Made by a program: the position numbers and the translations under genes | In this document: positions 5,661 through 54,235 of the stretch, one piece after another | Layout: each line of letters starts with the position of its first letter | How positions within the stretch are numbered: the stretch's first letter is position 1 | Assembly (NCBI GenBank): GCA_964016885.1 | Contig: OZ024741.1 | Location: 335,110,001 to 335,174,000, forward strand | Length of the DNA: 64,000 bases | Direction: 5' to 3' | Source of the DNA: Eledone cirrhosa | Lineage: Eukaryota | The notes under the pieces: model-generated | The model's database searches: none | What the model was told of the DNA's origin: nothing | The model's input: only the letters and a program-made list of their open reading frames with translations

Positions 5661-6319
5661 TATCCATTGTCCATGCTAGCATGGGTTTGACAAGTTGTTC
5701 TGTTGTGAGACAAGTCAGATTAGGTGACTGTGTCTTGCTCATACAGAACTGTTTCTTGTGTGTACATATCATCATTTAACGTCCATTGCCCATGCTAGCA
5801 TAGGTTAGAAGAGTTCCCACACTCTCTCTATCTTTACAGAGTGGCCCAGGTGCATTTTTGTGGTACCGTTCACTGAAAAGTCCTGTTTACCCTTTTTATC
5901 ATGGCTGGACACCCATCGTTTCTTTCAACAGTAACTTTACAGAGTGTAAAATTACATATATATCTGATGGTACCAACACTAGTAGGGGTGTTATACCCTT
6001 GACACAATTGACGGTTCCTCTTAATCTCATGTTTGGCTAGGTTTCTATGGCTTGGTAGCCTTCCTATAGTACAAAGGGTGTCATGCCCTTGACACAACTG
6101 AAGGGTCCTCTTAATCCTTTGTTTGGCATAGTTTCCACAGGTAGGTGGCATTTGTATATATATATATATAACCTTACAGAGTGTAAAATTCCATATACTT
6201 CTGATGGGACTTGAACTTGCAACCAGTTTAAGAGGCTGTTGCCTTAACCATTAGATCAAAACAGCTTATATATATATATATAATATAAGATCAAAAGATG
6301 GTTAAAGGAGTTCCATATA

Positions 6320-6386
6320 TTTTATTATGTGCATTTCAAAAACAAACATCATCAAGCAATAATATTTGTGTTTTCATCAGATAAAA
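6320..6386 (-). ncRNA. Hammerhead ribozyme, PLE downstream copy (stem III palindrome altered to TGCACA)
   Basis: Same core and stems as the other two PLE copies, with one substitution in stem III. Confidence 0.8.
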
Positions 6387-7366
6387 CAGGAGAACATGAT
6401 ATGAAGGCTAAAAAAACACTTGTTGATAGTGCAGTTTTAAATCAACATATGAAAAGTGGTTTTAGATTGATGTGTGATATTGGGAAAAATATTTTATTTA
6501 GAGAGGGGGGGGGGATGAAAAGGGAAGGAGATGAGAGGGAGAGATGGGTGATAGAGAGAAAGAGATAGTTTTTATAACTGAGAGGAGATATATTTTTTAC
6601 ATAGAGGGGTTGAAAACCGTTGGAAGATACTGTATAAATTAAAAATTTTGAAAATTAACGAAGGGAGGATATGTGCGAGGAAAAAATATTTTATTTAGGG
6701 AGGGGGGGGGTGGAAAGGATGAAAAAAAGGGGAGAGGAGATGAGAGTGAAGGTGGAGAGGGAGAGATGGGTGATAGAGAGAAAGAGATAGTTTTTATAAC
6801 TGAGAAAAAGATATATTGTTTTAATATAGAGAGGTTGGGAACCGTTGGAAGATAATGTATAAATTAAAGGAATTTGAAAATTAACGAAGGGAAATTATGT
6901 ATGAAGATAGAGAGAAAAAAATAATAATTGTGGGTGAATATTCTAACGTCAAAAGAAGAAATGTATGTATTGTGGCAATTTCAAAATTAGCGAAGAGAAA
7001 AGTTGTTAAGGTTTGTGTGTAGAAGGATTTGAGAAAAATAATGTGAAGTTAAAGTTTGTATATTGAATTGATATGTATTAATAATGAGTTCGTTGATGGG
7101 GAGAAAAAAATAATAATAAATTAAGGATGAAATTGAGATTAAAAAGATTTATGATAGAGAGAAAAAATAATAATGATTGCGGATGAATATTCAAAATGTC
7201 AAAAACAAATGTTATTATTTTACGAGAAGATAGAATGAGGGTAATGAGTAAACGAGTATTATAGAGTGTATAATGCCCTTTAAAGTAAGGTAGATGGGTA
7301 TATTTTAAAGAGGTGTATGTATATGTGCCTTTGAGAAAAGATTCTAAATTGATAAAGAATTGAATA

Positions 7367-9826
7367 TTAACTGTATACTTTGTGAAAAGTTCTATGGAAT
7401 TTATGCAGGCAGATAGAAAACAAATCTGAGCGTCTATTTATTATAGATTCTAGGTTAGAGATAATGGTAAATTTTTCATTTAGGCAGAGATTACAGATTT
7501 TAGATAGAGAGCTGTTCAAGTATGAGGATGCAGAAGAAATCTTTTTCCAAAAGATGTTATATTTAATGTTTTTGTCTTTTAAGGACCATATGAGTTCTGA
7601 GAGAGCAGTGTTAGTTCTTTTAAGTTTGTATTTGAAAGATGAATGATGATTATAGAGACGAGCTTTAAAAGAGGTGGAAGTGGAGCCAAAATAGGTGAAG
7701 GAATTGGTGCTAGTTATAATTTTACATTCATAAATTAAGTTTTTATCGAGGCAATGGTTGTTGAGAGGACATTTATTTTTAATGCGGCAGTTGCAATTAG
7801 AGAGATTATTAATGAGTGATCTAGTGTTATCTATAGAAGGAATTGGATTGGAGAAGTTGTTTGCGATAGGAATAACAGGAATAATAGTTTCTTGATTTAG
7901 AGTTGGATTATGAACATTTAGCGAAGTTGTGTTTGACGTTGTATTTGGGTTTACAGAAGTTAGCCTAGGGTTTACAATGACGTCGGGAGTACTATTACTG
8001 TTATTATGAAATTCAATATTGGAAGGAAGAGATTTAGTATTTAATATTTTGTTGTGTTTAGAGATGATGTTGGAAATATTGGAGGATGTAGAATACGAAA
8101 ATTTGATGGTGTGTTTGTTAAATATTTTACTATAGATATGTGAGGGAGGGAAGCATTTATTTAAGGCACTAAAAAATAATTTAGGAATATTGTTATTAAT
8201 AGAGATGGAGAAAGGAGCATTATACCAGATTATGTTTTTGTATCTAGGTCTTTTATTAAAATTATTGGAATGGTCATGATTAATTATTCTACTGTAAGTT
8301 TTCCTAGAATTTGTTTCTTTATTATATTTGATTTTATCTGGATAGCCGGCTTTAGAAAGTGCGTTATTATAGTAATTGGCGTTAGCATCAAAGATGTTTT
8401 TATTAGAAGATATGTTAGATATTCTATTTCCAATATTATTAACTATAGCATTCTTGATATTGGTAGGATGGTTAGATTTAAAGTTAACATAATTAAGATT
8501 CTCATTGTTTTTATGGTAAGGGTAATATAGGCCAGTGTCAAGATTAAGAGATACATCCAAGAAATTAGCTAGTTTGATACTATTATCAAATTCAATTTTT
8601 AGGTTATGTTGGTTAAAGAGATTACGTATATTGTTCTTAATAATATTAAGTTTAACTATATTGCAATTTAGGATAGTAAAGAGTCCATCGTCACGATAAA
8701 TTCCACCGCGAAGTTGAGGAATTTTCCGACTCAAAGAGTTCAAAATGAAGATACCAATTAAATCAGTCAATTGGGATGAATCGGATGCTCCCATTGTGAT
8801 GTCGAAGTTGTTAGAGGTATCGGCTCTGGTCCAATATTCGTTGTTGAACTCTAGGATGGTTTTACGTGCGGTGAGGATGATGTGAAGTTCATCTGTGGTG
8901 ATGTCAGAATATTTAAGTGCGAAAGATAGAGCATTATTGAGAAGTGAAGGCGAAATGGAGGAATAGTAGCTGGCAATATCGAATTGAATAAATTTTAGTT
9001 TGTTTTTATTATCCAATTTGTTGAACCAGCCAATCACTTCAGAAGTACCAAACCATAAATTTAGGTTTAAAGAAGAGCAATTAGAACTAACCTGTGGGAT
9101 AATCCTATCCAAGATGGCTTTACTAACAACCCCCAGATCAGATTTAGAGGGGGCGATTAATCTAACAGGTAGTTCAGTGCGAAAATTGTTTTTGTGATCC
9201 TTGAGATTTATCCTCGGAGTTCTTGGGAGGAATGGTTCAGTCTTTTTTTCAATGCCAAGTTTTGACATAATCTCATAGGCTTCAAGGTTTATGCATTCTA
9301 AATTTTCATGGTTGGTTTTACGATACTTTTTCCTAAGTTCCTTTAGGATAAGGTTGTTATAATTATCCTTGGAAATACCACATAGGTTATTGGTTTTGTC
9401 AGAGTGGACTAAAACATTTTTTGAGGAATTTAGGTTAGAGATTGTGTTCTTGAGATTTACAAGGTGCTCTTGTCCTTTGTAAGGGTATCTCTTGAATTTA
9501 AGATTTTTTATTATTTTAGTTAATTCTTCCTCGAATTGTGCTAGATTTTTGTTGCAAGGAGGATTTCGTCTAGAATTAAAAAGATGATCGAGGAAGTTGT
9601 GTTCTTTGGTATGAAAGTTCCCTTTTAGGCGCTGGTCATAGAAATAGGCTGTCCATCTAAGTCTTCTTACGAAGGAGTCAGTTTTTTCAATAAGAAGTTT
9701 GGTGAATTCGGATTTACCAGGTATAGGAATGTCTTTAGTTGAATTGGTTATGTTGTAATAATCCATGTTGTAGAAGAAGAGGTGAAGGACCATCAAAAGG
9801 TATCCAATATGAGAGTAAGCGCTCAA
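7367..9826 (-). CDS. PLE polyprotein: reverse transcriptase plus C-terminal GIY-YIG endonuclease (Hydra-clade-like); probable ATG at 9793 or 9766
   Basis: Uninterrupted 819-codon frame. RT motifs IQFDIASYYSSI, DITMGASDS, YRDDGL, NFLDVSL. Endonuclease region CNCRIKNKC (CxCx5C), LIY..YFG, FKARLYNH, CNLCLNEK, CLH. Confidence 0.93.
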   Translation of the reverse strand: MSAYSHIGYLLMVLHLFFYNMDYYNITNSTKDIPIPGKSEFTKLLIEKTDSFVRRLRWTAYFYDQRLKGNFHTKEHNFLDHLFNSRRNPPCNKNLAQFEEELTKIIKNLKFKRYPYKGQEHLVNLKNTISNLNSSKNVLVHSDKTNNLCGISKDNYNNLILKELRKKYRKTNHENLECINLEAYEIMSKLGIEKKTEPFLPRTPRINLKDHKNNFRTELPVRLIAPSKSDLGVVSKAILDRIIPQVSSNCSSLNLNLWFGTSEVIGWFNKLDNKNKLKFIQFDIASYYSSISPSLLNNALSFALKYSDITTDELHIILTARKTILEFNNEYWTRADTSNNFDITMGASDSSQLTDLIGIFILNSLSRKIPQLRGGIYRDDGLFTILNCNIVKLNIIKNNIRNLFNQHNLKIEFDNSIKLANFLDVSLNLDTGLYYPYHKNNENLNYVNFKSNHPTNIKNAIVNNIGNRISNISSNKNIFDANANYYNNALSKAGYPDKIKYNKETNSRKTYSRIINHDHSNNFNKRPRYKNIIWYNAPFSISINNNIPKLFFSALNKCFPPSHIYSKIFNKHTIKFSYSTSSNISNIISKHNKILNTKSLPSNIEFHNNSNSTPDVIVNPRLTSVNPNTTSNTTSLNVHNPTLNQETIIPVIPIANNFSNPIPSIDNTRSLINNLSNCNCRIKNKCPLNNHCLDKNLIYECKIITSTNSFTYFGSTSTSFKARLYNHHSSFKYKLKRTNTALSELIWSLKDKNIKYNIFWKKISSASSYLNSSLSKICNLCLNEKFTIISNLESIINRRSDLFSICLHKFHRTFHKVYS

Positions 9827-9971
9827 CCGTTAAGGAGCAAGTTAATGTAGGCGGTGAGTTTATTGTAGTACAATAAAGCAATGCAGATATCGGATAAGAA
9901 GCACTCTACAGTTTGTGGGACTGGAGTATGCATAATATAAGATCCAAAGATGGTTAAAGGAGTTCCATATA

Positions 9972-10038
9972 TTTTATTATGCGCATTTCAAAAACAAACA
10001 TCATCAAGCAATAATATTTGTGTTTTCATCAGATAAAA
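9972..10038 (-). ncRNA. Hammerhead ribozyme, PLE upstream pseudo-LTR copy
   Basis: Reverse complement of the motif at 13811-13877, with the TGCGCA palindrome intact. Confidence 0.88.
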
Positions 10039-10920
10039 CAGGAGAACATGATATGAAGGCTAAAAAAACACTTGTTGATAGTGCAGTTTTAAATCAACAT
10101 ATGAAAAGTGGTTTTAGATTGATGTGTGATATTGGGAAAAATATTTTATTTAGAGAGGGGGGGGGGAAAGGATGAAAAGGGAAGGAGATGAGAGGGAGAG
10201 ATGGGTGATAGAGAGAAAGAGATAGTTTTTATAACTGAGAGGAGATATATTTTTTACATAGAGGGGTTGAAAACCGTTGGAAGATACTGTATAAATTAAA
10301 AATTTTGAAAATTAACGAAGGGAGGATATGTGCGAGGAAAAAATATTTTATTTAGGGAGGGGGGGGGTGGAAAGGATGAAAAAAAGGGGAGAGGAGATGA
10401 GAGTGAAGGTGGAGAGGGAGAGATGGGTGATAGAGAGAAAGAGATAGTTTTTATAACTGAGAAAAAGATATATTGTTTTAATATAGAGAGGTTGGGAACC
10501 GTTGGAAGATAATGTATAAATTAAAGGAATTTGAAAATTAACGAAGGGAAATTATGTATGAAGATAGAGAGAAAAAAATAATAATTGTGGGTGAATATTC
10601 TAACGTCAAAAGAAGAAATGTATGTATTGTGGCAATTTCAAAATTAGCGAAGAGAAAAGTTGTTAAGGTTTGTGTGTAGAAGGATTTGAGAAAAATAATG
10701 TGAAGTTAAAGTTTGTATATTGAATTGATATGTATTAATAATGAGTTCGTTGATGGGGAGAAAAAAATAATAATAAATTAAGGATGAAATTGAGATTAAA
10801 AAGATTTATGATAGAGAGAAAAAATAATAATGATTGCGGATGAATATTCAAAATGTCAAAAACAAATGTTATTATTTTACGAGAAGATAGAATGAGGGTA
10901 ACCTTGAAGCCTATGAGATT

Positions 10921-12822
10921 ATGTCAAAACTTGGCATTGAAAAAAAGAATGAACCATTCCTCCCAAGAACTCCGAGGATAAATCTCAAGGATCACAAAAA
11001 CAATTTTCGCACTGAACTACCTGTTAGATTAATCGCCCCCTCTAAATCTGATCTGGGGGTTGTTAGTAAAGCCATCTTGGATAGGATTATCCCACAGGTT
11101 AGTTCTAATTGCTCTTCTTTAAACCTAAATTTATGGTTTGGTACTTCTGAAGTGATTGGCTGGTTCAACAAATTGGATAATAAAAACAAACTAAAATTTA
11201 TTCAATTCGATATTGCCAGCTACTATTCCTCCATTTCGCCTTCACTTCTCAATAATGCTCTATCTTTCGCACTTAAATATTCTGACATCACCACAGATGA
11301 ACTTCACACCATCCTCACCGCACGTAAAACCATCCTAGAGTTCAACAACGAATATTGGACCAGAGCCGATACCTCTAACAACTTCGACATCACAATGGGA
11401 GCATCCGATTCATCCCAATTGACTGATTTAATTGGTATCTTCATTTTGAACTCTTTGAGTCGGAAAATTCCTCAACTTCGCGGTGGAATTTATCGTGACG
11501 ATGGACTCTTTACTATCCTAAATTGCAATATAGTTAAACTTAATATTATTAAGAACAATATACGTAATCTCTTTAACCAACATAACCTAAAAATTGAATT
11601 TGATAATAGTATCAAACTAGCTAATTTCTTGGATGTATCTCTTAATCTTGACACTGGCCTATATTACCCTTACCATAAAAACAATGAGAATCTTAATTAT
11701 GTTAACTTTAAATCTAACCATCCTACCAATATCAAGAATGCTATAGTTAATAATATTGGAAATAGAATATCTAACATATCTTCTAATAAAAACATCTTTG
11801 ATGCTAACGCCAATTACTATAATAACGCACTTTCTAAAGCCGGCTATCCAGATAAAATCAAATATAATAAAGAAACAAATTCTAGGAAAACTTACAGTAG
11901 AATAATTAATCATGACCATTCCAATAATTTTAATAAAAGACCTAGATACAAAAACATAATCTGGTATAATGCTCCTTTCTCCATCTCTATTAATAACAAT
12001 ATTCCTAAATTATTTTTTAGTGCCTTAAATAAATGCTTCCCTCCCTCACATATCTATAGTAAAATATTTAACAAACACACCATCAAATTTTCGTATTCTA
12101 CATCCTCCAATATTTCCAACATCATCTCTAAACACAACAAAATATTAAATACTAAATCTCTTCCTTCCAATATTGAATTTCATAATAACAGTAATAGTAC
12201 TCCCGACGTCATTGTAAACCCTAGGCTAACTTCTGTAAACCCAAATACAACGTCAAACACAACTTCGCTAAATGTTCATAATCCAACTCTAAATCAAGAA
12301 ACTATTATTCCTGTTATTCCTATCGCAAACAACTTCTCCAATCCAATTCCTTCTATAGATAACACTAGATCACTCATTAATAATCTCTCTAATTGCAACT
12401 GCCGCATTAAAAATAAATGTCCTCTCAACAACCATTGCCTCGATAAAAACTTAATTTATGAATGTAAAATTATAACTAGCACCAATTCCTTCACCTATTT
12501 TGGCTCCACTTCCACCTCTTTTAAAGCTCGTCTCTATAATCATCATTCATCTTTCAAATACAAACTTAAAAGAACTAACACTGCTCTCTCAGAACTCATA
12601 TGGTCCTTAAAAGACAAAAACATTAAATATAACATCTTTTGGAAAAAGATTTCTTCTGCATCCTCATACTTGAACAGCTCTCTATCTAAAATCTGTAATC
12701 TCTGCCTAAATGAAAAATTTACCATTATCTCTAACCTAGAATCTATAATAAATAGACGCTCAGATTTGTTTTCTATCTGCCTGCATAAATTCCATAGAAC
12801 TTTTCACAAAGTATACAGTTAA
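10921..12822 (+). CDS. 5'-truncated second copy of the PLE RT/GIY-YIG ORF (lacks about 180 N-terminal residues)
   Basis: 633 aa matching the C-terminal part of the 819-aa ORF, with two differences seen (KTE/KNE, HII/HTI). Truncated at the inversion junction at 10900. Confidence 0.9.
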   Translation: MSKLGIEKKNEPFLPRTPRINLKDHKNNFRTELPVRLIAPSKSDLGVVSKAILDRIIPQVSSNCSSLNLNLWFGTSEVIGWFNKLDNKNKLKFIQFDIASYYSSISPSLLNNALSFALKYSDITTDELHTILTARKTILEFNNEYWTRADTSNNFDITMGASDSSQLTDLIGIFILNSLSRKIPQLRGGIYRDDGLFTILNCNIVKLNIIKNNIRNLFNQHNLKIEFDNSIKLANFLDVSLNLDTGLYYPYHKNNENLNYVNFKSNHPTNIKNAIVNNIGNRISNISSNKNIFDANANYYNNALSKAGYPDKIKYNKETNSRKTYSRIINHDHSNNFNKRPRYKNIIWYNAPFSISINNNIPKLFFSALNKCFPPSHIYSKIFNKHTIKFSYSTSSNISNIISKHNKILNTKSLPSNIEFHNNSNSTPDVIVNPRLTSVNPNTTSNTTSLNVHNPTLNQETIIPVIPIANNFSNPIPSIDNTRSLINNLSNCNCRIKNKCPLNNHCLDKNLIYECKIITSTNSFTYFGSTSTSFKARLYNHHSSFKYKLKRTNTALSELIWSLKDKNIKYNIFWKKISSASSYLNSSLSKICNLCLNEKFTIISNLESIINRRSDLFSICLHKFHRTFHKVYS

Positions 12823-13810
12823 TATTCAATTCTTTATCAATTTAGAATCTTTTCTCAAAGGCACATATACATACACCTCTTTAAAATATACCCATCTACC
12901 TTACTTTAAAGGGCATTATACACTCTATAATACTCGTTTACTCATTACCCTCATTCTATCTTCTCGTAAAATAATAACATTTGTTTTTGACATTTTGAAT
13001 ATTCATCCGCAATCATTATTATTTTTTCTCTCTATCATAAATCTTTTTAATCTCAATTTCATCCTTAATTTATTATTATTTTTTTCTCCCCATCAACGAA
13101 CTCATTATTAATACATATCAATTCAATATACAAACTTTAACTTCACATTATTTTTCTCAAATCCTTCTACACACAAACCTTAACAACTTTTCTCTTCGCT
13201 AATTTTGAAATTGCCACAATACATACATTTCTTCTTTTGACGTTAGAATATTCACCCACAATTATTATTTTTTTCTCTCTATCTTCATACATAATTTCCC
13301 TTCGTTAATTTTCAAATTCCTTTAATTTATACATTATCTTCCAACGGTTCCCAACCTCTCTATATTAAAACAATATATCTTTTTCTCAGTTATAAAAACT
13401 ATCTCTTTCTCTCTATCACCCATCTCTCCCTCTCCACCTTCACTCTCATCTCCTCTCCCCTTTTTTTCATCCTTTCCATCCCCCCCCCCTCCCTAAATAA
13501 AATATTTTTTCCTCGCACATATCCTCCCTTCGTTAATTTTCAAAATTTTTAATTTATACAGTATCTTCCAACGGTTTTCAACCCCTCTATGTAAAAAATA
13601 TATCTCCTCTCAGTTATAAAAACTATCTCTTTCTCTCTATCACCCATCTCTCCCTCTCATCTCCTTCCCTTTTCATCCTTTCCCCCCCCCCCTCTCTAAA
13701 TAAAATATTTTTCCCAATATCACACATCAATCTAAAACCACTTTTCATATGTTGATTTAAAACTGCACTATCAACAAGTGTTTTTTTAGCCTTCATATCA
13801 TGTTCTCCTG

Positions 13811-13877
13811 TTTTATCTGATGAAAACACAAATATTATTGCTTGATGATGTTTGTTTTTGAAATGCGCATAATAAAA
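13811..13877 (+). ncRNA. Type I minimal hammerhead ribozyme in the PLE pseudo-LTR
   Basis: ttttat-CTGATGA(13817)-stem II-GAAA(13860)-palindromic TGCGCA-TA|ataaaa. Stem I is ttttat/ataaaa. Predicted cleavage after 13871. Confidence 0.88.
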
Positions 13878-13999
13878 TATATGGAACTCCTTTAACCATC
13901 TTTGGATCTTATATTATGCATACTCCAGTCCCACAAACTGTAGAGTGCTTCTTATCCGATATCTGCATTGCTTTATTGTACTACAATAAACTCACCTCC

Positions 14000-14064
<65 letters not shown>

Positions 14065-47172: not shown

Positions 47173-48181
47173 TGTCTCTCTGTCTGTCTGTCTATCCATC
47201 CATTTGTCTATCTACACCTCTTTCTTTCTCTCTCACACTTGCACACAATGTATATGTGTGTGTGTGTGTGTGTGTAATTATATATAACAAAGGATTAACA
47301 AGGATTATTATTAAAGCATTTAATTTATATATGTCCTTTCAATAGACTATCAGGAATGTTCCATTCTTGCAAGAATAACTCCTCAGAATCGATCAAATAC
47401 AAATAAATATGTTATATATATATGTGTCTGTGGCAGGGGCGAAGGGTGTGTGCATGCAACGCATGCAGTGCATGCATTATAGAATCTTGAGTTTATCAAT
47501 TGTGTCGGTTGAAGCAAGCAGAATTTTGGCTGCTTACTAAATCGTAGACACATAAAAAAGATAACACACACACACACACGACAGCGTCAGTTGAAGCAAG
47601 CAGAATTTTGGCTGCTTGCTAAATGGTAAACACATAAAAAGATAACACACGCACACTCACACACTAGATAACACTACATGCGGCTTTGACCGGGAGGGTC
47701 ATTTAGAGGGAATTGGGGGTGGGAGGGATAAGGCTGCACAGCCCCACTTTCCACCATGGCGATTTGGACTGCATGCCCTGCTTTCCAGGTTACCCTTCGT
47801 CACTGGTGGGTGTACATACATACATACACATGCATATATATACATATCATCATCATTGTCGATTAACGTCTATCTTCCAGGCTAGCAGGAGTTAGACGGG
47901 TTTGTCCCAATTAGAGGCAAGTTGGGTTGGGTGACCATGTCTCGCTCATATAGGAGAGTTTCTGGTGGTTTTCTATGGCTGGTTGCTCTTCCTAACGCCA
48001 ACCACATTGACAGTGTGTGCTGGGTACTTTTTGCCATGTCTTTTACACATCCACTTCACAGTGTGGACTGGGTGTTTTGGGGCTGGTTTTCTATGGCTGG
48101 ATGCCCATCCTAGCGCCAACCACATTTATAGTGTGTGCTGGGTTCTTTTTGTCATGACACCTACATATATATATATATATA

Positions 48182-49095
48182 TATACTAATTATTATACTA
48201 CAGTTTGTCCATATCGATTTAAAATAATAAATCAACGGAGACGAACTGTATTGGCAAAAGGCCGTGATGTTTAGACACATTTAAATTTCAAAATCAAACC
48301 TGTTCCGTAGATAAGTTTAGACTTTAAGATCCAAATATGTTTCGAGTTAAAGTCTAAACTTATCTACGAAACAGGTTTGATTTTGAAATTTAAATGTGTC
48401 TAAACATCACGGCCTTTTGCCAATACAGTTCGTCTCCGTTGATTTATTATTTTAAATCGATATGGACAAACTGTAGTATAATAATTAGTATACTTCAATC
48501 TGGCTAAATTTTTCTTTCGCAATATATATACAGATGTGTTGGTATCTGTGTTTCATCACATACATATTAATTTATACACTGCTCATGGGATATATTTTTT
48601 CCTCATTCGAGCTGATTCCATTGTAAAAGAATTCATTACCTTATTAATTTTAATCTGCTCCTAGTTTGAGCTGCAAAGCCGCCTCATATACATGACTGTT
48701 ATTTCTAGCAGTACGGTTATGAGACTAGTTAGATACTGTAAAGCCATGTGCGCCACGCAGTCTTTTAAATTATTTAGAAGTGAAGCATATCAATTTGTCT
48801 CTGGATGTTTACTGAGGAGAGCGGGACTTGATATTCCTACACTTTTTTAACTCGAAACATATTTGGATCTTAAAGTCTAAACTTATCTACGGAACAGGTT
48901 TGATTTTGAAATTTAAATGTGTCTAAACATCACGGCCTTTTGCCAATACAGTTCGTCTCCGTTGATTTATTATTTTAAATCGATATGGACAAACTGTAGT
49001 ATAATAATTAGTATACTTCAATCTGGCTAAATTTTTCTTTCGCAATATATATACAGATGTGTTGGTATCTGTGTTTCATCACATACATATTAATT

Positions 49096-49099
<4 letters not shown>
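48182..49099 (+). mobile_element. Non-coding HHR element: 523-bp unit present about 1.45 times, plus an inverted 5' segment, in (TA)n
   Basis: 48347-48576 is repeated at 48870-49099 (offset 523). 48182-48350 is the reverse complement of about 48847-49015. Flanked by (TA)n. Confidence 0.85.
48804..48931 (+). ncRNA. Type I hammerhead ribozyme with long stem III
   Basis: gatgttta-CTGAGGA(48812)-gag..ctc-GAAA(48854)-catattt..aaatgtg-TC|taaacatc. Perfect 8-bp stem I, GUC cleavage triplet at 48921-48923. Confidence 0.85.
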
Positions 49100-49134
<35 letters not shown>

Positions 49135-51432
49135 GGAGAAGAGTATTGAATACATTGAAGGCCATATGCTGTTGTATTTAGGTTTATTTTCATCTCCATG
49201 ATACATATTTTACTGGGGTCTATGGCTAGGTAGTGCTCTTCCTACCCACTCCTTCAGCCTTAGCTAGTCAGATGGTAGAAAAAGAAAAATTAAAATATAT
49301 ATATAACATCTCAGTCCACACTAAAGTGTTTGTGTAGGTGTCACGACAAAGAGCACCCAGTCCACGCTGTAAAGTGGTCATGTAGGAGACACAGTAAAAA
49401 GGCTCTCAGTCTACACTGTAAATGTGGTTGATGTTAGGAAGGGCATCCAGCCATAGGAAACCTGCCAGATACAGTTATATATGAGCGAGACACGGTCACC
49501 CAATCAATCTTGCCTCAAGTGGGACAAGCCCATCTAATCCATGCTATCGTGGAAGATGGACGTTAAATGATGATGATGATGATACATACAAACACAGAGG
49601 AAATTAAAAAAACAATTCAATCCTTACAATGGTATTGAGTACTCATTCTCATTAACTCAATACTAAGCATATATATATATATATATATATGTTCATGTGT
49701 GTATATTAGTGTGTGTGTGTATATGTGTGAGTGTGTATAAATGTGTGTGTTAGTGTGTATTGTCCAAAGGAAAGGCTTTGGCCGATAGTGATTGGTTGGT
49801 ACCAACATTAGTTGGAAAGTGTCAAATGTGACCCTGCAAGACACTTCATTCTATGTCTTAACCCTTTTAATACCTTACAGCCTGAAACCACCCCTGGTTC
49901 TACAATATAAAATTGTTTGTTTTAACTTAGCATCCTGTAATCAATTATGAGAAAATGTCTAAAAATTATTTGCGATTTTCAAATGTTTATAGTGTCTTTT
50001 CTAGTGGACAAATTTTTGTGAAAATTTGTAGTAAGCTAAAGTAAGAACTTTAAATTTTAATATGTAATGCAGTCATAATAATGTTTTGTACATTTCAAAA
50101 ATAACTTACTAATGCAGTTTCACACAATACAGGACATTGAGTTAAAGTCTCTATATTTATCTAAAAACCTTCAATCATAATTCTATGTCAAAACTTTTTT
50201 CTTAAGTTATGTTCCAGACACCAGCTTAATAATGCAAAAGTTAGTTATATTACTAAGATTCTTGTATTCCTCTAGATTCTTGATTATTTTCAAAACCATA
50301 GACAATGGACTGAGATGGCTGGGTCATGTGTTGAGAAAGGATGACAATGATTAGAAGAGAGGAATAGAACTAGTGATGAATGTTCTGAAGAGAAATAGAA
50401 TGAGATAGTTGGGTCGTGTGCTGGGGAAGGATGAAGGTGACTAGATGACAGAAGTGATAGGAACAGAGTCAGTGATAAATGTTATGAAGAGAAATAGAAT
50501 GAGATGACAGGACCGTGTGTTGAAGAAGGATGAAAGAGACCAGATGATAGTGAGTAAAATTTGGTAGATGCAAACTGCAGTAGTTTGTATCTGTGTTTAT
50601 GTCATATATCTAGTGGTTCGACAAAAAAGAAAAAAAAGTCCCAAACTGTAAAAGATATATGATAGCTGGCATCGATATGATCAACAACTAAATCCGTTTC
50701 AGGTGGTACACTAACATAACAGCAGTTAGATGACTAAAAATAATGAAGTTTTATATACAAGGGGAAATTATTCATTGGTTGACATTTAACTCAATACAAT
50801 GAACCAACGAAAATGGAATAAAACTGACAGCAGATATATTATATTAGACTGTTAGATATAGTGGCTTCTAATGTTAACACAGGCTCAAGAATTTGGAGGA
50901 GAAGTGGAAAGCGGATGATATCTAACCCTTCCACAATACTTTACTGGTACTTTATTTTATCAAAAGGGATGAAAGGCAAAGGTGATTTGGGTATTACTTG
51001 AAACCAAAGCATAAAAAAACTACCAAGATTGGAAATATAATATGTTGTAAAAGATCTACTAACTATAAACTAAATCTTTGAGTACATGGAGGTTATGAAA
51101 AGATTCAACAACAGAACCTCCTAGCTGCTTTACAGCTTCACTTGCTTCCCATTTTTTATTTATCTTTTTTTAATGCTTATTTTGCCTACAGTTTGCCTTC
51201 CCTATTTATTTTTTAATTTAATTTAATTTTAATTCTTATTTTTATATTCACTTATCTCTGTCTATCTTGTTTTTTTTTTTATTTTTCAACTAGATACTTC
51301 CATTAGTCTGTCATGGTTTATTAGCTCTATACTTCAGACGTTTTAATTAATTAAATAAATAAATAAACTTACGAAATCCTGTAAGGCATTCTCTCTGATT
51401 CACTGACGATTTTGCCAATCCAGCTATCAGAA

Positions 51433-52233: not shown

Positions 52234-52781
52234 AACGAGTAGGACCCCGACGGCTGAGCTCAAGCCGTTTCGACGGCTAATTCTGGACTAAATGAAAATG
52301 TTTATCCTGGTATATGAATAGCCGAGCTTCTCAGGGGGTAATTCCATATATGGTAAAAGTGATTGTCACAAGGATTGGTCAAAAGTTTGTTGTTGAGACA
52401 CATAATTCTATCATGGCAATTTGTGGAAGGAAGGGGTAGCTGAACCTGCCACTAGAAGAAAGAGGAAGAGGGAGTGGAGGAAACCCAACTCCCTCTCCCT
52501 CTTTCTTCTACTGGCAGGTTCAGCTACCCCTTACGCTAGAGGTTTACGGTATGTCGAATCTATTTATCTATAAAACTGTTTATATTGTATTTTGTCTGAT
52601 GAAGGCATAGCATATTGTTAATATGATATCCCCGAAATATATATAATGAAATAAATATGGTTTTATAAATATAGTTTTCCATTTATTTAATATTGTAAAT
52701 ATACTCCAAATATTTGTCGAGTGCTTTTATATCAGTTATAAATATTTACTTGTTGTAACCCAACAATTTTAAATATAACTT

Positions 52782-52786
<5 letters not shown>
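52231..52786. mobile_element. (TA)n-embedded element with a plus-strand HHR (52590-52651), a minus-strand HHR-like motif (52232-52344) and a central 102-nt hairpin
   Basis: Plus: ttttgt-CTGATGA..GAAA-tatata-TA|atgaaa. Minus: cccc-CTGAGAA-g..c-GAAA-cggc..gccg-TC|gggg. Hairpin 52431-52532. Confidence 0.7.
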
Positions 52787-52845
<59 letters not shown>

Positions 52846-53947: not shown

Positions 53948-54235
53948 GTTAGGTAATTCCGAAGGAAAAGCAAAGGAAAAAAGAGTGCTCTATGTATAGA
54001 ACAGAGCTATTTAATTAGAAAGTGAACAACACAAAATATAACTACTCCATTACCAAAGGTTTCTGGATCCCAGACAATAATAATATACATCTGGATCGGT
54101 CATCAGACAGATGTTATCTGTCTGATGATAACATCTCTGTCTGACGACCGATCCAGATGTATATTATTATTGTCTGGGATCCAGAATCCTTTGGTAATGG
54201 AGTAGCTATATTTTGTGTTGTTGACTTTCTAATTA
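53948..54235. mobile_element. Fold-back HHR element in (TA)n
   Basis: Inverted arms about 54012-54118 and 54128-54235. Minus arm has an intact tctgt-CTGATGA..GAAA-cctttgg-TA|atgga (54046-54111). Plus arm has CTGACGA..GAAT (mutated). Confidence 0.8.

Follow-up and report, generated by a model that had tools for sequence, protein, structure and literature searches.

Dispersed non-coding hammerhead retrozymes of Eledone cirrhosa, likely mobilised by Penelope-like elements

Introduction

Between positions 48,182 and 49,099 of a 64,000-nt stretch of the Eledone cirrhosa genome (contig OZ024741.1, 335,110,001 to 335,174,000; the whole stretch is called the window here), a repeat unit with a hammerhead ribozyme occurs in tandem and is preceded by an inverted copy of part of itself. 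What is this unit, and which machinery has copied it? A first-pass annotation had taken it for a retrozyme-like family unrelated to the neighbouring Penelope-like elements (PLEs), had expected its ribozyme to cleave as a monomer and had implicated PLE machinery on account of the layout.

Non-LTR retrozymes of animals have been described by Cervera and de la Pena 2020 (PMC7229834) and Li et al. 2026 (bioRxiv 10.64898/2026.07.22.740005), and both sources propose their mobilisation by PLEs. The mobiliser has so far been argued from co-occurrence (2020) and from similarity to frog pLTRs (2026 preprint); a 2020 review (PMC7761336) states that animal retrozymes have no conserved motif by which it could be identified. 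According to Craig et al. 2021 (PMC8557442), PLEs carry a tail at one end. In the in vitro study of Frangieh 2024 (PMC11167929), a PLE protein cut both strands and extended them, and synthesis began at two internal sites of the RNA between which the genomic PLE tail lies.

Results

Structure of the window copy

The window copy comprises 1.44 tandem units with a period of 523 nt (Table 1). Positions 48347-48869 recur at 48870-49099 with a spacing of 523, which bears out the earlier count of ~1.45 units of 523 bp; the second unit extends over 230 nt at 99.6% identity. The inverted copy of the ribozyme 3' half and tail, also described before, was confirmed: 48182-48351 is the 100% reverse complement of 48846-49015 (170 nt) and contains the last bases of loop II, the 3' strand of stem II, GAAA, stem III, GUC, the 3' strand of stem I and 92 nt of tail. 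The inverted and forward arms join over a short common stretch at about 48345-48351, and the 3' end of the copy, 49099, coincides with the major insertion end E1 (equivalent to 48576). Because the upstream ribozyme (48347-48408) lacks its 5' half, the window copy has one complete ribozyme only, a point absent from the first-pass annotation. Its longest coding potential, the sole ATG frame of at least 40 aa, is 52 aa.

The locus is flanked at 47845-48160 and 49300-49584 by copies, in opposite orientations, of a very abundant unrelated interspersed repeat. Within the unit, the sequence of a hairpin at 48959-48983 and of its homologues, about 35-60 nt past the cut site, is nearly invariant across subfamilies A-E (see below).

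Table 1. Features of the retrozyme locus and of the Penelope-like elements in the window
Feature	Positions	Strand	Remarks
(TA)n target tract, left	48162..48181		from sequence
Inverted arm	48182..48351	-	ribozyme 3' half and 92 nt tail; ends at minor variable end E0
One retrozyme period (523 nt)	48347..48869	+	cut-to-cut monomer 48401-48923
Upstream ribozyme, 5'-truncated	48347..48408	+	part of stem III, GUC, stem I 3' strand; without core and GAAA; from sequence
Major end E1 and hairpin	48576..48612	+	E1 at 48576; hairpin GCUC...GAGC 48581-48612, 4 nt on
Second end E2 and hairpin	48648..48671	+	E2 about 48644-48652 in other copies; hairpin GCUC...GAGC 48657-48671
Helix X, 5' strand	48777..48803	+	X3 48777-48785, X2 48787-48793, X1 48797-48803; immediately before stem I
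Type I hammerhead	48804..48931	+	8-bp stem I, CUGAGGA, 3-bp stem II, GAAA, 28-bp stem III, GUC
Stem I	48804..48811/48924..48931	+	8 Watson-Crick pairs, from sequence
Core CUGAGGA	48812..48818	+	from sequence
Stem II	48819..48821/48851..48853	+	GAG/CUC; encloses 29-nt loop
Helix X, 3' strand	48822..48845	+	within loop II; 5-nt linker 48846-48850 returns to stem II
GAAA	48854..48857	+	from sequence
Stem III	48857..48922	+	28 bp including 6 G-U
Partial second unit (230 nt)	48870..49099	+	terminates at E1
(TA)n target tract, right	49100..49112		from sequence
Two-armed Hydra-type PLE	6280..14004		inserted separately; candidate for the type of mobiliser; arms end at 6280 (equivalent to 13917) and at 14004
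820-aa frame of this PLE	7367..9829	-
Hairpins of this PLE	9927..9903 and 9838..9821	-
P2, second Hydra-type PLE family, 3' fragment	52540..52787	+	same pair of ends and of hairpins, hairpin 1 at 52703-52722

A type I hammerhead with a minimal stem II

The ribozyme has the CUGANGA / GAAA / NUH core and the three stems of a type I hammerhead, with stem I open, and is predicted to cleave after C48923. The full core, the perfect 8-bp stem I and the long, G-U-containing stem III noted in the first-pass annotation can all be read from the sequence. The contrast that it drew with the neighbouring PLE ribozymes, which have a 2-bp palindromic stem III, likewise holds. Stem II is merely 3 bp long. The ribozyme region folds with z = -3.8, and none of 200 shuffled sequences folded equally well. 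Rfam returned 0 matches at the gathering score in the window, and the five weak matches in 48700-49100 included no hammerhead, probably because loop II and stem III are enlarged. In 11/11 representatives of the family, the plain hammerhead fold lay 2.7-12.9 kcal/mol above the predicted minimum. Given this unfavoured plain fold, the 3-bp stem II and the reliance on an additional helix (helix X, see below), the monomer cleavage expected at first is not established.

A young, dispersed family with a ribozyme under selection

The unit belongs to a dispersed, non-coding retrozyme family of about 2,000 copies in the Eledone cirrhosa genome. It is a young repeat in this 3.0-Gb genome: 39 scored candidates out of 1,121 gave 156 matches at 91-100% identity. 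A pattern for the long-stem-III type gave 659 exact matches and, once relaxed, 1,292, an older short-stem-III type matched 825 times, and one pattern with a U3-A8 core had 46 matches (one of them unrelated by eye); the reversed-pattern controls gave 0 matches in every case. A metagenome scan for the family returned 0 matches.

Eight subfamilies, A-H, can be told apart, and the window copy belongs to A. Whole-unit identity between subfamilies A-D is 65-91%. Unit periods are 510-526 nt in A, 534-560 in B, C, D and E where a period is visible, and 582-590 in F. Measured from ribozyme to ribozyme, periods are 516-558, with one type I hammerhead per unit. The GC content of the units is 0.31-0.33 and they have no LTR structure. 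Two consecutive complete ribozymes, the mark of an 'active' element in Li et al. 2026, occur in other copies (e.g. L003, L008, L025, L107, L156), not in the window copy. Those properties of a non-LTR retrozyme that can be tested on sequence were found in the family.

Covariation was examined in 22 rows, hand-picked from 131 distinct sequences. Two-sided changes occur in six of the eight pairs of stem I and in two of the three of stem II; for the core 3-8 pair, 17 representatives have C-G and 5 have U-A. Among 126 distinct ribozyme sequences, this pair is C-G in 98, U-A in 25 and other in 3. Pairing was found in 93.8% of the alignment cells, versus at most 56% when partners were slid. As the rows share common descent, the covariation counts represent few independent events. 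The sequence of stem III is conserved, with 15 of its 28 pairs invariant, 9 changing on one side and 1 on both. Thus, covariation across subfamilies is seen in stem I and in the core 3-8 pair (C-G to U-A), as the first-pass annotation had asked of a genuine ribozyme, and these patterns indicate that the hammerhead is under selection. Its reading of the locus as a member of a retrozyme-like family is upheld by dispersed copies with a conserved, covarying ribozyme.

The U3-A8 core is a natural hammerhead variant according to PMC3088659 and PMC4209133. Subfamily F also has U3-A8, 20 of its 25 anchored matches reading UUGAAAA and then UCACA. Besides this core, L194 and L200 of subfamily F have two opposed U residues at the base of stem II, and their loop II includes a structured linker of 65 nt.

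An additional predicted helix may clamp the outer ends of stems I and II

Most of loop II can pair with the 27 nt ahead of stem I, through three segments of about 20 bp in total, here called helix X. This feature, absent from the first-pass annotation, is present in 8/8 subfamilies examined. Shuffled flanks matched its pairing in 0-5 of 1,000 trials for 7/7 representatives of A-E and in 0-2 of 1,000 trials for 5/5 in F, G and H; the latter test took in five loci, with the G loci L222 and L205 outside the anchors. Among 30 old copies of the G/H type, 22 reached p≤0.05 and 8 failed. In the alignment, in which X3 is shifted by a single column in four rows of subfamily C, 81.8% of the helix X cells pair, versus at most 52% with slid partners. 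Nine of 21 pairs change on both sides, a count reached by 34 of 500 shuffles and a weak measure by itself. The pseudoknot count covered the 113 of 126 sequences that could be anchored.

Helix X encloses exactly the enzyme half of the ribozyme and starts beside the outer ends of stems I and II. The linker from helix X to stem II measures about 5-13 nt, except in F (65 nt); with such a short linker, the full helix X and stem II together would require fraying or a partner unit. According to RNAfold, which does not score pseudoknots, helix X is part of the predicted minimum fold of 7/11 representatives and of the nascent RNA in 9/11, and the predicted fold of the L156 unit includes it. It is absent from the predicted minimum fold of the window copy. 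In the window subfamily A, helix X is weaker and has one A-A mismatch, and a local hairpin competes for its GAAG. RNAalifold, applied to the 22-row alignment, recovered stems I and III; it did not recover stem II or helix X.

The long stem III, stressed in the first-pass annotation, does not define the lineage: stem III is about 5 bp in subfamilies G and H with all else kept. Since G and H retain helix X and the 3-bp stem II without the long stem III, helix X is the hallmark of the lineage; the long stem III was probably gained later.

Insertions have two fixed ends

We surveyed the ends of 112 distinct sites of subfamilies A-E, after dropping duplicate fetches and arrays at locus edges; the sites were best-scoring or first-listed matches rather than a random sample. 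Of the 168 3' ends, 159 run into (TA)n, within which target-site duplications are unreadable. While 5' truncation varies across copies, two 3' ends are fixed: one-armed insertions end at E1 in 31 cases and at E2 in 25. Two-armed insertions (n=56) combine E1 with E2 in 41 cases, E1 with E1 in 2, E2 with E2 in 1, and other ends in 12. By hand calculation, independent ends would give 41 unlike pairs out of 44 with a probability of about 1e-9. The window copy is among the 12 others, combining E1 with the minor, variable end E0. Ends of the E0 type occur at 6 of the 56 two-armed sites, at scattered positions, and in the subfamily A unit no hairpin motif follows them.

In L034 and L058, the inverted arm holds sequence that is missing from the main arm. 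This rules out a fold-back origin of the inverted arm, and the additional bases imply that each arm had its own template. Three seemingly one-armed insertions (L003, L051, L056) have stubs of 8-17 nt with an E2 end on the 5' side, which suggests that many insertions were primed from both sides. At L047, L050 and L059, retrozyme copies and PLE 3' ends share one (TA)n tract. Taken as a whole, the family displays features of PLE-mobilised sequences: two putative start sites of reverse transcription (RT), a tail at one end, partial tandems, an inverted 5'-truncated arm and insertion into (TA)n.

Two Hydra-type PLE families follow the same end rule

The window PLE is young, with 56 genome matches at ≥99% protein identity, 55 of them without a stop; a probably active PLE partner is available in the genome. 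Its protein has the motifs RLRWT, DKT, CNCRIKNKC, CNLC and CLH, and Pfam gave no informative match for it. These motifs agree with the marks of the Hydra clade in PMC8557442, namely an RWK-like motif, DKT, CxCX5C, CxxC, CxH, a C-terminal endonuclease and (TA)n. By motifs rather than by a tree, we would place both PLE families of the window in this clade. The non-coding part of the window PLE spans about 1.2 kb, including an internal 200-nt duplication.

In 8/8 fetched loci with both arm ends visible, the window PLE had unlike ends, at about 13917 and 14004 (by eye). The second family, P2, has a protein 54-57% identical to that of the window PLE and had unlike ends in 9/9 loci (by eye). P2 is represented by 33 candidates; its ends lie 83 nt apart and its ribozyme has a palindromic stem III (52540-52787 in the window; L230, L231, L236). 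The tail bounded by the two ends is 72-76 nt in the retrozyme versus 83-87 nt in these two PLE families, and 30-40 bp in PMC8557442. Additional short head-to-head inverted fragments with hammerhead cores, at 546-896 and 53990-54230, are probably the 3' ends of other PLE families.

A hairpin shared by retrozyme and PLE lies next to the ends

The motif RCUC-N(5-26)-GAGY occurs exactly twice in the 3.65-kb unit of the window PLE, 4 and 6 nt past its ends, and exactly twice in the 523-nt retrozyme unit, 4 and 8 nt past E1 and E2. In shuffled PLE sequence, it was found 3-10 nt downstream of a random position with a frequency of 6e-4. Across retrozyme subfamilies and PLE, RCUC lies 3-11 nt past 14 of the 15 ends examined, with the ends of B-H placed by eye and blurred by TA and with a hairpin motif of merely 4-5 bp. 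The E2 end of D reads GCUU, and in one example of the E1 end of G the hairpin has a broken 3' side. In P2, ACUC...GAGU follows E1 and GCUC...GAGC follows E2 (three loci with a visible junction). As the window PLE and P2 have the hairpin in common, the signal points to a clade and not to a single family. We infer from its position alone that the RCUC...GAGY hairpin marks the RT start.

The E2 hairpin of subfamilies C and F (GCUCCUUCGGUAGAGC; L107, L115, L194) has what we take to be a resemblance to a tRNA D-arm. ARAGORN found 0 tRNA genes in 6/6 loci, a test that decayed heads would escape, and a tRNA-derived SINE was rejected for want of a tRNA-like head in these loci. An 11-nt word common to the unit and the PLE tail was dropped, as it is not conserved in other subfamilies.

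BLAST of the 523-nt unit against the window PLE gave no alignment, and a profile of retrozyme units had no match in 30 PLE loci; two short hairpins are all that they have in common. The description of the family as unrelated to the PLEs therefore stands for sequence similarity to the window PLE, which is not detectable, and does not extend to the start-site hairpins, which both possess. The involvement of PLE machinery, first proposed from the layout (partial tandem, inverted 5'-truncated arm and (TA)n target, a likeness that holds), is now supported beyond it by the E1 and E2 ends, the shared hairpins and the same end rule in the window PLE and P2. Since two insertion end points and the adjacent hairpins are common to both, mobilisation by Penelope-type elements is likely.

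Discussion

The locus is best read as a single insertion from a dispersed family of non-LTR retrozymes, non-coding and with units of 510-590 nt, which are likely copied in trans into (TA)n tracts by Hydra-clade PLE proteins. A multimeric transcript would be cut to unit length by the ribozyme and probably circularised. A dimer of the PLE protein would cut both strands of a (TA)n target and prime one cDNA per side, at E1 and E2, with reverse transcription beginning just upstream of the two RCUC...GAGY hairpins. Copying round a circle or along a multimer would yield more than one unit, and head-to-head joining of the two cDNAs would produce the inverted, two-armed insertion. Helix X, at least the 5-7 bp adjoining stems I and II, is predicted to act as a pseudoknot that clamps both stems, and the rest of the helix would form first during transcription and set when cleavage can occur.

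Could the unit instead be the terminal repeat (pLTR) of an autonomous PLE that was not seen, the copies being truncated insertions of it? Its order of ribozyme, E1 and E2 and its hairpins do match PLE pLTRs, Li et al. 2026 describe retrozyme-pLTR homology in Xenopus, and the parent search was limited to the fetched loci and not exhaustive. Yet arrays of up to nine periods, the longest observed, hold the unit alone (L182), and in the fetched loci no PLE RT-GIY-YIG frame runs directly into a unit. Three same-strand PLE fragments do lie 0.5-1.4 kb upstream of a unit, but they are separated from it by (TA)n (L047, L056) or by the inverted arm (L121), and the sole pair of units with a spacing of 3,354 nt is a local duplication without a frame in between. 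We consider a pLTR identity of these copies quite improbable; an ancient origin of the retrozyme unit from a pLTR is possible. Still further from what we would expect is a satellite or rolling-circle repeat that spreads at the DNA level and carries a relic ribozyme. Tandem arrays would fit such a repeat, but fixed 3' and variable 5' ends, the rule of unlike ends, insertion into (TA)n and ribozyme pairs that change on both sides, the core pair among them, would not.

Two other readings keep the same mobilisation or family and differ in the role of helix X. The full 20-bp helix might persist and hold the enzyme half out of reach of its own substrate, so that cutting takes place between neighbouring units or molecules only. 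This has some appeal: the enclosed enzyme half, 16-18 nt exactly, is left free, the linker measures about 5-13 nt in most subfamilies, helix X is the nascent-RNA fold predicted for most representatives, and animal type I hammerheads commonly cleave as dimers only (PMC4209133, PMC7229834). By a rough geometric estimate, however, an extended linker could bridge helix X in cis if 2-3 end pairs frayed, subfamily F has its 65-nt linker, and the predicted circles of A and C retain stem I (probability 0.85-1.0 in 5/7 units). We therefore treat obligatory cutting between units as possible but not the expected case. Alternatively, helix X could be purely an off-switch that keeps the circle from being cut again and is not part of the active fold, as its presence in the predicted minimum of B and D circles and of the 7 linear representatives might suggest. 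Against this, helix X leaves all core and stem nucleotides free. In subfamilies with a 6- to 8-bp stem I, its first pair directly follows the 3-nt stem II strand and lies at most one base from stem I, the very position of activating pseudoknots (PMC3088659). A role as off-switch only is thus doubtful. On these models, the cis pseudoknot is favoured over both a dimer with swapped stems I and II and a pure off-switch. A more speculative combination, which we think unlikely, would have the hairpin pair serve as a portable Hydra-RT start signal for any RNA, together with a clamp-swapped double hammerhead that cuts multimers and spares the circle.

Like the animal non-LTR retrozymes, the family consists of non-coding tandem repeats of low GC content with a single type I hammerhead in each unit, and it co-occurs with PLEs. 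Its units of 510-590 nt fall in the 51-972 bp range given by Li et al. 2026 and exceed the invertebrate retrozyme circles of 170-400 nt of the 2020 description (PMC7229834). It differs in combining a 3-bp stem II, a large loop and a 20-bp clamp, where animal retrozymes usually have loop 1-loop 2 contacts, in the long stem III of six subfamilies, and in a PLE tail signature with a common start-site motif. With the Hydra-clade PLEs (PMC8557442), it shares (TA)n targets, partial tandems, an inverted 5'-truncated arm and a tail at one end. The two also have in common a hammerhead upstream of the ends and the same hairpins. Unlike those PLEs, the retrozyme has no reading frame; its ribozyme is different, and the two sequences do not align. 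The non-autonomous Chlamys PLEs, MRC1 for example (PMC8557442), are similar in being non-coding, head-to-tail and PLE-dependent; they differ from the retrozyme in having 3' ends like those of their partners, and most Chlamys elements are without canonical hammerheads.

The regions of stems I and II also base-pair with each other in the pseudoknotted hammerheads of Perreault et al. 2011 (PMC3088659). The pseudoknots in the available text of that paper measure 4-6 bp, whereas the complementarity here amounts to about 20 bp in three segments; note that repetitive type I ribozymes were omitted from part of that survey. The large helix III of fungal and protist PLE hammerheads, which permits monomer cleavage according to PMC4209133, has a counterpart in the large stem III found here. 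A search of the open literature, mostly of titles and the beginnings of abstracts, returned no publication on the family, the shared hairpin or the long clamp, and the mussel ribozyme figures of PMC7229834 may bear on the novelty of helix X. Already published are the retrozyme class, the inverted arms and the tail of PLEs, hammerheads with pseudoknots and the U3-A8 core.

As the clamped hammerhead is invisible to Rfam, similar families elsewhere may have been missed. The insertion ends and the common hairpin described here point to a PLE clade and to a signal of 15-30 nt, both testable in the existing in vitro assay, and the shared hairpin bears on how PLE enzymes pick their two internal start sites.
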